From NCBI GenBank assembly GCA_038063015.1, contig JBBTVX010000002.1, positions 1 through 55,646 of the forward strand: a DNA stretch of 55,646 bases. The letters run 5' to 3'. The position numbers and the translations under genes were made by a program. This DNA comes from Patescibacteria group bacterium (GTDB lineage Bacteria > Patescibacteriota > Minisyncoccia > Minisyncoccales > Staskawiczbacteraceae). The stretch's first letter is position 1. Each line of letters opens with the position of its first letter. Shown here one piece after another: positions 12,484 to 15,169 of this stretch. Below the pieces are notes generated by a model. The model ran no database searches, was not told the origin of the DNA, and was given only the letters and a program-made list of their open reading frames with translations.

Positions 12484-14790
12484 ATGAATCCAGAGGGACG
12501 AAAATTTGAAGAACCTACAGGCGGAGAAATTCCGGTAGAGGAAGCTCAGGATATAAAAGCTATCCATAAAGAGCCATATATAATCGAAAAAGAAAATTCG
12601 GTTTCTTTTTTGGGCGTTGAAGTGCCAAAAGCAAGTGGGGGACGACTGGTTCCCGGGATAGAGGAATTTAAAGAGGAATATACTTTTATAGAGGGCCATT
12701 ACCAATTTATGCGTGAAGCGGCAACTGCTTTGCTTTTGAACAAGCCAATCCTGTTTGAGGGCGGCACCGGTGTTTATAATAAAACAACCACAATAGCATA
12801 TATTTGCAAACTTTTAAGCATGAATTACTGCAAAGTGAATTTTGGAAGAGAAACTGCTGTTGAGGATGTGATGGGTGGCAAAGAACCTGAAACCGATGAA
12901 CATGGGCATGAAAAATTTGAATGGTATAATGGGCGGTTAATGGATGCCATAGAGCATGGCGGAATAGCTTTTTTAGACGAATATAATCGTCAAAGCAGGC
13001 TGCATGAAATTGTTAATCCTGTCATAGACGCAATTCTTAATGGCCGCAAGGAAATTGTAAATCCTTTGAATAAAAGCAAAACAGTAAAAGTTCATCCGGA
13101 TTTTCGCTTGATAGCGGCGCAAAATCCGCCCGGATTTGAAGGGGGACACACTTACGAAGGAAGAAATCCTTTGCCAACTGAAACATTCGGTAGGTGGGTT
13201 TTTAAAAAATTGCCCCCTGAATATACAAGCGAGGAAAGAAATAAACGTTTGGCTGGAATGATTGGAGAAAATGTAGAAATTAATCTGCCGGCATCGGAAT
13301 TCCGCATGAATGTGCCCAGTGGGGAAGAATTGAGTCCAAAAAGCGGAGAGTATAAAACGCCAGAGTTTGCGCGGGGAGAAGTGCGAACGTTGGCTGGCGT
13401 ACCCGGGATGATCAATTGGCGGAGAGAGATGGTAAGCATATTTGAAGTATTACAATCAAAATCATCCGGCGCAAAAAAAGAAATGGCCAAAGGTCAAAAA
13501 CAAGAGCTTAGCATAAATCCAAGATTGGAAAATACTATTTTAGAATATATCGCTCGTTTTTACAAAGGCGATATTAACGAAACCGTAAACAATGCCTTTG
13601 AAACCTGCGTTGTTGGAATGTATAGCTCTGAAGCCGATAGAAAAAAAATAAGAGAAATGTTAAATCAAGCAGCGTGGAAACCGCCAGTGACGGAATCTAA
13701 GCGCAAGGGCTTAGAGAGAGGACCAAAGGAAGAAGAATCTTTGAAGGGCGAAGGGCCGGAGACATTGCAGGAAGTTCGCAAAAGAGCTGAAAAAGCGCGG
13801 GAATCTTTATTCAAAAATCCTAAGGTGCCAGATGAAATAAAAGAAAGATTAAAATTAGTAGAGTCAAGCGCTGAATTGGAATCATCTTTGCAAGAACAAT
13901 ATGAAAGGCAAGTGGAAGTTTTAGAGAAAGCCGGCCTTTTGCGTAAGCTGGAGTCGGGTCAGCTTGGAATAGAGGGCATTGACGGCAAAGAGTATGCAAT
14001 ACCCACACAGGCAGAGATAGTTGAAAGGATAGAGGCCAAAAAAGAATTAGTTGAAAGAAAGCAAGAGCAAGGTTTTACAAAATTGTTGTTGGTGCCGTTT
14101 GGGATGAAGTTGGACGACTTAATTGAGGCGTATAAACAAAGAATATTAGATCACAGCCAAAGGGGGAAATTATTTGCAACAAAAAAGGATTCGGGAGATC
14201 CTCCAACGCCGTTGGAATTAAACGAAAGCCAGCCCCTTTGGAAATGGGATGGGTATAACAATGCCGATGCGACTGGCGAGCTTGTATACAATCCAAAAGA
14301 ATTTTCTAAAAATCATAAAGGCAAAACAAAACAGGAAATTCTTGAGAAACAAGGCGGCTGGCAAGTGCTTTTAATTGAGGACATGTCAAACATTCCAAGA
14401 GAAGGAGGCGCAAAAACAAAAGGCGGCAGAACGCAAATAGACACGGGCGGGAGCTCAATTAAGAAATATATTAAGCGAGGCGAAAACATCCCAAGCCCCG
14501 CAGAATATCTTAAAGCTCTAAACAAAGAGCCGGCGTATAATGGCGAGTCGGGGATGACTCCGGAAGAGCATATCATATACGCAATAACTCACTTAAAGGA
14601 GACCGATGAAGTTGTGGATGATTGGCAGGGTAACGGCAGCATTTCTTATCAGATAGGAGCGTATTTTCCTTCTTCGGGCAGTGCGCCGCACGCCTACTGG
14701 GACCGCGGCAATCGCCGGGCCAGCATTGTCAGGAACGATCCTGACTATCGCAATGACTATTGCGGCGTTCGCCCCGCGGTGCGCCTCTAA
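12484..14790 (+). CDS. MoxR/CobS-like AAA+ ATPase fused to a C-terminal C-type-lectin-like DGR variable domain (DGR target)
   Basis: Variant Walker A GGTGVYNKTT, Walker B AFLDEYN, VHPDFRLIAAQNP; C-terminal variable region ending CGVRPAVR. Confidence 0.88.
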   Translation: MNPEGRKFEEPTGGEIPVEEAQDIKAIHKEPYIIEKENSVSFLGVEVPKASGGRLVPGIEEFKEEYTFIEGHYQFMREAATALLLNKPILFEGGTGVYNKTTTIAYICKLLSMNYCKVNFGRETAVEDVMGGKEPETDEHGHEKFEWYNGRLMDAIEHGGIAFLDEYNRQSRLHEIVNPVIDAILNGRKEIVNPLNKSKTVKVHPDFRLIAAQNPPGFEGGHTYEGRNPLPTETFGRWVFKKLPPEYTSEERNKRLAGMIGENVEINLPASEFRMNVPSGEELSPKSGEYKTPEFARGEVRTLAGVPGMINWRREMVSIFEVLQSKSSGAKKEMAKGQKQELSINPRLENTILEYIARFYKGDINETVNNAFETCVVGMYSSEADRKKIREMLNQAAWKPPVTESKRKGLERGPKEEESLKGEGPETLQEVRKRAEKARESLFKNPKVPDEIKERLKLVESSAELESSLQEQYERQVEVLEKAGLLRKLESGQLGIEGIDGKEYAIPTQAEIVERIEAKKELVERKQEQGFTKLLLVPFGMKLDDLIEAYKQRILDHSQRGKLFATKKDSGDPPTPLELNESQPLWKWDGYNNADATGELVYNPKEFSKNHKGKTKQEILEKQGGWQVLLIEDMSNIPREGGAKTKGGRTQIDTGGSSIKKYIKRGENIPSPAEYLKALNKEPAYNGESGMTPEEHIIYAITHLKETDEVVDDWQGNGSISYQIGAYFPSSGSAPHAYWDRGNRRASIVRNDPDYRNDYCGVRPAVRL
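14087..14558 (+). repeat. Direct repeat copy 1 (472 bp), matches 16528-16999
   Basis: Appears identical by eye at offset 2441; similar but diverged sequence extends on both sides (about 13886-14780 vs 16318-17221). Confidence 0.9.
14671..14780 (+). repeat. DGR variable region (VR)
   Basis: Aligns without gaps to 17112-17221; 11 mismatches, 10 at template adenines. Confidence 0.93.
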
Positions 14791-15074
14791 ATTTTTGCTT
14801 CATCATTATGTTTTTTGTTTATGTTTTGCAAAGTCTGAAAGATAAAAAATTATATATTGGTTATACAGACAACCTGGCTGAAAGATTTAAAAAACATAAT
14901 GATGGACAAGTTAAATCGACAAACCCCCGCAAGCCGTTTAAGATAATTTACTATGAGGCGCATCAAAACAAGTATGATGCCATTGTAAAAGAGAAATTTT
15001 TAAAAACTGGCTGGGGATACAATTATCTTAAACGGTCTCTGAAAAACTATTTTGAAGCAAAAACTTAGTGGCGC
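14781..15074 (+). mobile_element. GIY-YIG mini-element with 22-bp terminal inverted repeats and GGT target duplication
   Basis: Left GCGCCTCTAAATTTTTGCTTCA (14781-14802) vs reverse complement of 15053-15074, GCGCCACTAAGTTTTTGCTTCA (20/22). GGT flanks at 14778-14780 and 15075-15077. Confidence 0.8.
14808..15068 (+). CDS. Small GIY-YIG nuclease family protein
   Basis: FVYVLQSLKDKKLYIGYT...RFKKHN...KST...E..LK; likely start ATG 14808. Confidence 0.9.
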   Translation: MFFVYVLQSLKDKKLYIGYTDNLAERFKKHNDGQVKSTNPRKPFKIIYYEAHQNKYDAIVKEKFLKTGWGYNYLKRSLKNYFEAKT

Positions 15075-15169
15075 GGTGAGGATTTAAAAATCTTGATATT
15101 TGAGCCTTGTCTTTTTTTATTTTTTTATTTTAAAATTGAAAAATATTGAGATTTTTGCTATAATTAAGT

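Follow-up and report, generated by a model that had tools for sequence, protein, structure and literature searches.

A GIY-YIG nuclease gene enclosed by inverted repeats and inserted at the end of a diversity-generating retroelement variable repeat in a Patescibacteria genome

Introduction

The published system closest to the element described here is Ssn/NTS. Ssn proteins are GIY-YIG proteins of about 94 aa that bind a hairpin repeat (NTS/SRM), act on single-stranded DNA (ssDNA) only, and cut a few bases upstream of the repeat (PMC11893778; Chenal et al., 2025, Nat Commun 16:2388). According to the main text of that paper, SsnA (site-specific ssDNA endonuclease, 94 aa) requires Y6, Y17, and E64 for cutting, and 42% of the Ssn homologues have the repeat on both sides. 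The authors likened the NTS-ssnA-NTS layout to an insertion sequence, drew an analogy to Y1 transposases, and proposed restriction of incoming ssDNA as the role of SsnA (PMC11893778). We analyzed a stretch of 55,646 nucleotides (the window) from a Patescibacteria group bacterium (assembly GCA_038063015.1, contig JBBTVX010000002.1), in which a GIY-YIG nuclease gene of similar size lies in a 294-bp segment bounded by inverted repeats. A first-pass annotation, made from the sequence alone, had described this segment as a transposase-free mini-element inserted at the end of the variable repeat (VR) of a diversity-generating retroelement (DGR). Judged by comparison with homologous DGR targets that are continuous at the site, the segment is indeed an insertion, and it is best explained, at a probability of roughly 0.6, as an inserted copy of a family of ~0.3-kb cassettes, each a gene in a hairpin, with mobilization by the nuclease as part of the account.

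The locus shares with Ssn/NTS a single-domain GIY-YIG protein of about 90 aa, in which invariant Y5, Y16, and E62 compare with Y6, Y17, and E64 of SsnA, and a hairpin-forming inverted sequence on both sides of the gene; repeat and protein also appear to co-vary. The two differ in that one inverted-repeat pair encloses the gene here, whereas Ssn genes have a separate small hairpin on each side, and in that no dispersed solo repeats occur here. Furthermore, target duplications and empty sites demonstrate insertion in the present case, which the cited parts of PMC11893778 do not, and the hosts are Patescibacteria, which are not named in the main text of that paper.

The nearest solved relative of the window protein is a UPF0213 protein. 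Stand-alone bacterial Slx1-like/UPF0213 proteins (YhbQ; PDB 1zg2 and 1ywl) share the minimal stand-alone GIY-YIG domain and are treated as vertically inherited, repair-type proteins in the classification cited here (PMC1564403; Dunin-Horkawicz et al., 2006), whereas the gene under study is multi-copy, repeat-framed, and inserted. The Seg proteins of phage T4 are likewise encoded by small selfish GIY-YIG genes between or at the ends of conserved genes and may have tRNA neighbors, as described for SegB in a tRNA cluster (PMC2330249). However, they are larger and carry DNA-binding domains, have neither terminal inverted repeats nor target duplications, and spread via homologous repair between co-infecting genomes. 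Elements of the IS200/IS605 and RAYT/REPIN types resemble the cassette in that their ends form ssDNA hairpins around one very small gene, but their HUH/Y1 enzymes join strands via a covalent tyrosine, whereas a GIY-YIG protein is a hydrolytic nuclease; moreover, they have subterminal hairpins instead of one end-to-end stem, and the cassette has flanking duplications. In the same host group, the candidate phyla radiation (CPR), GIY-YIG open reading frames (ORFs) were found in short insertions of rRNA genes other than group I and group II introns (Tsurumaki et al., 2024; PMC11270868). The main text of that report does not contain the terms "inverted repeat", "direct repeat", or "target site duplication", and the target in our case is the 3′ end of a protein-coding gene. 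No description of inverted-repeat-framed GIY-YIG mini-elements with target duplications was present in the literature searched, supplementary files excluded (lists of Ssn homologues might include Patescibacteria).

Results and Discussion

The segment is an insertion at the 3′ edge of the variable repeat

The window is contig C2 of a 594-kb genome (G000; 35% G + C, 15 contigs) of an ultra-small groundwater bacterium, and homologues of the window genes come from metagenome-assembled genomes (MAGs) of Patescibacteria (CPR). The features around the insertion, all on the + strand, are as follows.

12484–14790, +: DGR target gene, 768 aa, with an N-terminal AAA_5 domain; its C-terminal end is now ...RPAVRL
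14681–14781, +: VR; 11 mismatches to the template repeat (TR) copy, 10 of them at TR adenines
14775–14781, +: left direct repeat CGCGGTG (7 nt); the strict duplication outside the arm is GGT; present as a single copy in the empty sites of the related genome G019
14781–14802, +: left terminal inverted repeat; contains the TAA (14788–14790) that now ends the DGR target gene
14808–15068, +: stand-alone GIY-YIG nuclease ORF, 86 aa, Slx1/UPF0213-like and Ssn-sized; its TAG lies inside the right arm
15053–15074, +: right terminal inverted repeat; overlaps the end of the nuclease ORF (final five codons and TAG stop)
15072–15078, +: right direct repeat CGCGGTG (7 nt), with GGT at 15075–15077
15075–15101, +: post-VR sequence separated from the VR by the insertion; 26/27 bases identical to the sequence directly after both G019 VRs
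17122–17222, +: TR, located 3′-terminally in a ~0.9-kb paralogue of the target gene (16315–17222)

The unit spans 14781–15074 and consists of the two terminal repeats and the single 86-aa ORF between them; no DDE, HUH, serine, or tyrosine recombinase is encoded. Its arms are complementary at 20 of 22 positions, as in the terminal inverted repeats of class II elements, and a repeat search lengthened the pair to 33 nt at 79% (14781–14813 and 15042–15074). GGT stands outside both arms, at 14778–14780 and 15075–15077; the 7-nt repeat CGCGGTG also counts the terminal bases of the arms. Because the inserted length comprises the 294-bp segment and one copy of the direct repeat (GGT), it amounts to 297 bp. 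Thus, the repeat lengths, the duplication, the two stop codons inside the arms, and the nuclease as only cargo all stood as the first-pass annotation had described them.

Two kinds of empty site were available. The TR copy runs uninterrupted across the site, reading ...GCGGTGAG at 17215–17224 and, over the wider stretch 17209–17226, ...CGCCCCGCGGTGAGAG... without a break. In addition, G019, a genome from a different genus of the same family, contains a homologous DGR; the products of its two target genes are 56–59% identical to the window target over the last 200 residues. Both genes are continuous at the site (...CCGCGGTGAGGATTAAAAAATCTTGATATTT), where the window reads ...CGCGGT, then the element, then GGTGAGGATTTAAAAATCTTGATATTT. 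The G019 target proteins end in ...AVRIKKS, consistent with a window target that ended in ...AVRI before the insertion; it now ends in ...AVRL. The two GIY-YIG genes that G019 itself has sit on contigs other than its DGR contig. As read from these alignments, the segment is a 297-bp insertion that interrupts a site left intact in homologous DGR targets; it duplicated 3–7 bases (GGT or CGCGGTG on both sides, once in G019 and in the TR) and, by supplying its own stop codon, altered the target protein in its last residue only (I to L). The claim that removal of the segment restores a reading frame ending in RPAVRI-stop and continuing the TR match was therefore confirmed, as were the position at the 3′ edge of the VR/TR homology and the separation of the VR end from its downstream sequence. 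The objection that orthologous loci might always contain the segment and that no other GIY-YIG genes might be similarly framed does not apply: homologous loci without it exist, and many other GIY-YIG genes are similarly framed, as described below.

A DNA search for the orthologous locus in the same genus returned none in 4 genomes, and a protein search for the target homologue in 60 relatives returned G019 only. The junctions recurred with zero differences in contigs from a second study (X5 record 14 and X7 record 29), and a metagenome contig from another sample (L040), whose element occupies the same site, is identical to the window throughout 14773–15086. In a 577-nt contig (X6 record 21), the element is present with 1 difference and the same 18-nt left and 17-nt right flanks; after 15091 this contig runs for 248 nt unlike the window, so that the downstream neighborhood differs in that population. 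Two contigs that end at 14781 (X5 record 13 and X7 record 28) were considered as empty-site candidates and rejected, since they actually represent the TR copy (9–11 differences).

The nuclease and its family

The 86-aa protein matched Pfam PF01541 (GIY-YIG) with 54.2 bits (cut-off 22.6; E = 1.9e-14), and Y5, Y16, R26, H30, E50, and E62, the residues expected of the GIY-YIG superfamily, were unchanged across an alignment of 33 homologues. Its best PDB sequence match was 1zg2 (UPF0213 BH0048; E = 3.7e-5), the Atlas structure model has a pLDDT of 0.91, and NCBIfam gave sub-threshold matches only. Pfam detected no DNA-binding domain besides the 86-aa core.

We found 111 protein homologues of 53–151 aa, mostly in Patescibacteria MAGs. 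GIY-YIG ORF matches were present in 41 of 61 related genomes, at up to 8 copies each in genomes of <1 Mb. The second GIY-YIG gene of G000 (C1:63177–63419, minus strand) has a perfect 21-bp inverted repeat of other sequence and similar style. To score framing, we took the best ungapped pair (+1/−1.5) between a 135-base region around the start codon and one of 165 bases around the stop; the window arm pair scores 17. A score of at least 12 was reached by 12 of 29 related-genome loci versus 1/290 controls (31 loci minus 2 that lay at contig ends; the window element is one of the 29) and by 23 of 68 independent metagenome loci versus 4/335 controls. The metagenome set came from a single-protein scan from which 11 of 79 loci were dropped, and two of its members, L041 and L043, are near-duplicates. 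Pooled, tight framing was found in 35/97 loci versus 5/625 control placements. These controls were random placements of equal geometry in related loci; at a threshold of 14, they gave 0/290 in the first set and 2/335 in the second, where none reached 16.

The arms mostly end 1–20 nt before the ATG and overlap the stop codon, and are therefore part of the unit and not of the target. Their outer ends are typically C-rich (CCCC, ACCCC, TTTACCC). In the closest proteins (L041–L043, 60–62% identity), the arms are the most similar to those of the window, and L041 and L042 differ at matching positions of both arms. As these alignments show, the repeat sequence varies between copies, is most alike in the closest proteins, and changes in both arms. 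The proposed BLAST search for other copies thus had a split outcome: no second DNA copy was found in G000, while many GIY-YIG genes of related genomes are framed by inverted repeats. At three loci (L068 at ~1737–1760, L099, and L032), a second partial left arm or end-like sequence (CCCCAAC..., GTGCGGAAT, CCCCGTTAA) directly follows the right arm, which suggests tandem or nested insertions, or solo arms. A 755-base metagenome contig carries a 151-aa ORF (P0105) in which a methyltransferase N-terminus is joined to the last 33 residues of a nuclease 97% identical to that of the window; this may be a copy truncated in a different context, or else a chimera of the assembly. Matches to the arm at 18/19 bases at C2:39999 and C15:1978 were rejected as element copies, being part of an unrelated repeat of ~100 nt. 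This repeat, at ~39960–40080 of the window and ~1920–2040 of C15 (minus strand), is non-coding-looking and conserved, with an internal inverted repeat TTTGCAAAAATTT ... AAATTTTTGC.

Flanking repeats and target sites

Flanks were compared for the 29 elements with a repeat score of at least 14, with left and right flanks paired across different elements (812 pairings) as the null. An abutting direct repeat of at least 3 nt was present in 15/29 elements versus 75/812 mismatched pairings (9%), and one of at least 4 nt in 10/29 versus 22/812. The longest flanking repeats, those of L075, L097, and L025, restore a tRNA gene at its 5′ end. In 12–13 of 31 loci, mostly at copies without a strong inverted repeat, the ORF has a tRNA or tmRNA gene no more than ~130 nt away. 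In several copies, the G-rich right end together with the duplication recreates the G-run of the target, the window case being CGC + GGTG.

A general association of the cassettes with DGR variable repeats was rejected: a search for the motif ...CG[VFLI]R within 400 nt at ~110 loci returned the window locus and one unrelated hit only. Since no other copy among the ~110 lies at a VR, the position in the window looks like a single event that happened to strike a GC-rich island of an AT-rich genome. Two further candidates for DGR targets were also discarded: the 758-aa frame at L033 arises by reading on from FtsH through a masked stretch and two tRNA genes, and at L012 the 403-aa frame is fused to that of a surface protein downstream.

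Predicted single-strand fold and internal stems

In predicted ssDNA folds, the terminal arms paired on both strands, in the minimum-energy as well as the centroid structures. The fold z-scores against shuffles were −5.0 and −4.1 for the two strands, and 0 of 100 shuffles folded as well. Two internal stems lie within the unit.

14801–14816, +: start-codon stem, 5′ arm; perfect 16-bp stem covering the start codon, pairing with 14889–14904
14889–14904, +: start-codon stem, 3′ arm; codons K-K-H-N-D-G (invariant His-Asn motif)
14934–14948, +: second internal stem, 5′ arm; perfect 15-bp stem, pairing with 15021–15035
15021–15035, +: second internal stem, 3′ arm; pairs with 14934–14948

A perfect run of at least 12 between the start-codon and His-Asn regions occurred in 9/97 same-locus versus 84/9312 cross-locus pairings, and a sub-family therefore keeps the start-codon stem by covariation. 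Stems of 13–16 bp at this position are also found at L010, L011, L014, L022, L068, L069, and L084. The role of the start-codon stem may be to turn translation off, or to contribute to a folded single strand.

How the cassette may move

The best explanation of the shared layout is a family cassette in which a stand-alone gene for an 80–100-aa GIY-YIG nuclease is enclosed by a terminal inverted-repeat pair. By analogy with Ssn, the encoded nuclease might mobilize its own cassette by cutting ssDNA at the base of the end-to-end stem, to which we give somewhat less than an even chance. During a single-stranded stage (at a replication fork, in transformation, or in repair intermediates), the two arms would pair as in the predicted fold, so that the two ends and their flanks would meet at the foot of a single stem. 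A cut by the nuclease at this point would be followed by copying or pasting of the unit into G-rich sites resembling its own end. More tentative still is the proposal that the cassettes are the smallest autonomous DNA transposons known and a new mechanistic class, in which the nuclease would recognize its own stem and host replication or repair would do the pasting or copying. If the proposed stem is closed end to end, the insertion would fold out of the host strand, and this would account for its tolerance in tRNA and rRNA genes and at the VR end. The first-pass term "minimal mobile element" is borne out as regards insertion, by the empty sites in G019 and the TR, and as regards a minimal GIY-YIG-only cassette, by the single ORF. 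"Transposase-free" is right for the element, which has the GIY-YIG ORF only, and wrong for the genome, which has Y1_Tnp and rve homologues.

Several observations weigh against mobilization by the nuclease. To our knowledge, no strand-joining activity has been described in the GIY-YIG family, and an 86-aa protein is an unusual transposase candidate. G000 has Y1_Tnp matches at C11:21091–21432 and C1:152868–153125, plus three rve matches. In both sets of loci, ~60% of the homologous ORFs are without a clear ungapped inverted repeat. The flanking repeats range from 0 to 9 nt, which does not fit one fixed staggered cut, and are shorter than 2 nt in 7 of the 29 strongly framed elements. Searches of G000 with blastn and blastn-short returned no second DNA copy of the element or its arms. 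No contig joining across 14781–15074 was found in runs X1, X5, X6, and X7, although contigs lose rare variants and such an absence proves little, and no excision or circle junction was seen. Finally, the published SRM pattern gave 2 matches genome-wide versus 0.85 ± 0.65 in 20 block shuffles, with none within ~600 bases of either GIY-YIG gene.

We weighed four other explanations. That an ordinary resident gene is surrounded by a chance inverted repeat, or that the locus is an assembly artefact, is hardly credible: it could appeal to the single DNA copy of the element in G000, but 0 of 625 control placements reached the window score of 17, the junctions recur in the second-study contigs and in L040, and G019 has empty sites, so that this idea is refuted as far as the data go. 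A free-standing homing endonuclease gene, which would cut cassette-free alleles and be copied by double-strand-break repair with the repeats being regulatory or incidental, is unlikely, if the least unlikely of the four. Membership in the GIY-YIG family, the many relatives that abut conserved tRNA or tmRNA genes (12–13 of 31, comparable to T4 segB as described in PMC2330249), and the fact that two strains whose VRs differ share one element, unchanged and at one site, would all suit it. However, homing makes no target duplication, yet flanking repeats are enriched, and the repeats hug the ORF with both arms changing. Homing also fits poorly with the unrelated sites that copies occupy within one genome and with the absence of a Pfam DNA-binding domain beyond the 86-aa core. 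Moreover, L040 has single-nucleotide differences 9–10 nt from both element ends, so that there is no long co-conversion tract around the element.

The cassette might instead be a non-autonomous passenger, similar to a miniature inverted-repeat transposable element with cargo, whose hairpin-forming ends a host transposase would recognize in trans while the nuclease serves, for example, in restriction of incoming ssDNA. We regard this as improbable. IS200/IS605 elements make no target duplication, and the arms overlap the stop codon of the nuclease and follow its phylogeny. Y1_Tnp is indeed present in 35 of 61 relatives as well as in G000, where the three rve matches could also supply a transposase, and Y1 enzymes act on ssDNA hairpins according to the main text of PMC11893778. 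Nevertheless, 9 related genomes with 2–8 GIY-YIG copies gave no Y1_Tnp match, among them G035 with 8 copies and G026, in which one copy (L009) is framed at 17/18 positions and has TAGA repeats. Equally improbable is a stem that acts at the RNA level, by which RNase III or tRNA-processing enzymes would excise the cassette from the transcript, as for rRNA intervening sequences, and the insertion would be old, no longer mobile, and harmless owing to this excision. The covarying start-codon stem of the sub-family (9/97 versus 84/9312), the many copies within tRNA transcription units, and the GIY-YIG ORFs in non-intron insertions of CPR rRNA genes (main text of PMC11270868) would fit such processing, but it leaves the arrival of the unit and the flanking duplications unexplained, and the two arm mismatches would be U-U and A-C, not G-U. 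It is also compatible with mobility rather than an alternative to it. An inserted member of a cassette family in which the nuclease takes part in mobilization thus remains our preferred explanation.

DGR context and probable continued diversification

The paralogous copy at 16315–17222 is ~90% identical to 13883–14781, the 3′ part of the target gene, and the ~0.8-kb similarity upstream of the VR (13883–14660 versus 16315–17101) shows ordinary paralogue divergence. The DGR accessory gene follows the TR.

17234–17545, − strand: bAvd-like DGR accessory gene (PF22296, 38.8 bits, just below the 40-bit cut-off)

No reverse transcriptase (RT) was found in the window, and RT matches in the genome were on C6 and C1 only. 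The C6 RT (L003, C6:46980–50582) has 263 aa, lies beside an Avd gene, and starts ~60 residues later than the C1 copy; at the C1 locus (L004, C1:117413–120736), an Avd gene is accompanied by an RT that stop codons split into ORFs of 174 and 148 aa. With no RT in the window, an apparently short one on C6, and a split one on C1, all three DGR-type loci of G000 therefore look incomplete. The DGR locus of G019 (L125, C4:19000–30000) has two targets ending in ...CGVRSAVRIKKS, and at 7528–8181 of L125 a single open frame leads from the TR across what is left of Avd, in antisense, and on into the C-terminal RT half (YGDD motif onward), which indicates that a deletion removed most of Avd and the N-terminus of the RT. 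Considering this Avd remnant and half RT together with the incomplete loci of G000, these DGRs look partly decayed.

The first-pass annotation had suggested that the insertion may have frozen diversification. This did not hold up against L040: although its element is identical, 7 of the 8 differences between its VR and the TR fall at TR adenines. The L040 and window VRs differ at 14 positions between 14689 and 14772, and ~120 bases upstream of the L040 VR likewise follow the TR copy. Judging from these patterns, at least one lineage probably had its VR rewritten from the TR after the insertion. The alternative, passage of the element from strain to strain, would have to occur without co-conversion of markers 9–10 nt away and is less economical, though possible. 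The simplest reading of the alignments is that the insertion did not stop DGR diversification. The 27 post-VR bases (15075–15101 versus L125 ~3226–3252 and ~7181–7207) match across genera at 26 positions, whereas the proteins are merely 56–59% identical, and they may be a conserved DGR target-recognition element downstream of the initiation of mutagenic homing (IMH) sequence.

Between the element and the TR-bearing paralogue, 15170–16059 encodes a DUF6922 protein and an AbiEii-family nucleotidyltransferase (a type IV toxin-antitoxin pair). After the TR/bAvd region (16143–17545), where no reverse transcriptase follows, lies a PaaX/Cas2-like gene (17474–18196). It is bracketed by two ~37-nt copies (17576–17614 and 18237–18276) that are 92% alike and each palindromic around GCGTACGC; these may be operator sites.

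Implications

Since an insert of 297 bp between the VR and a post-VR sequence conserved across genera apparently did not prevent later adenine-specific rewriting, either the need for downstream sequence is limited or the hairpin loops the insert out. The copy in the window is an unusually clean test substrate, with exact ends, a duplication of 3–7 nt, and natural empty sites in the TR and G019. If the nuclease moves its own cassette, the family would represent a class of mobile element that is absent from the literature searched, ~0.3 kb in size and with a hydrolytic GIY-YIG enzyme in place of a transposase, and the remark on an insertion sequence-like architecture in the Ssn paper would become a testable mechanism. 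There is demand for Ssn-type enzymes as tools for ssDNA, and every cassette supplies a candidate for both the enzyme and its site.

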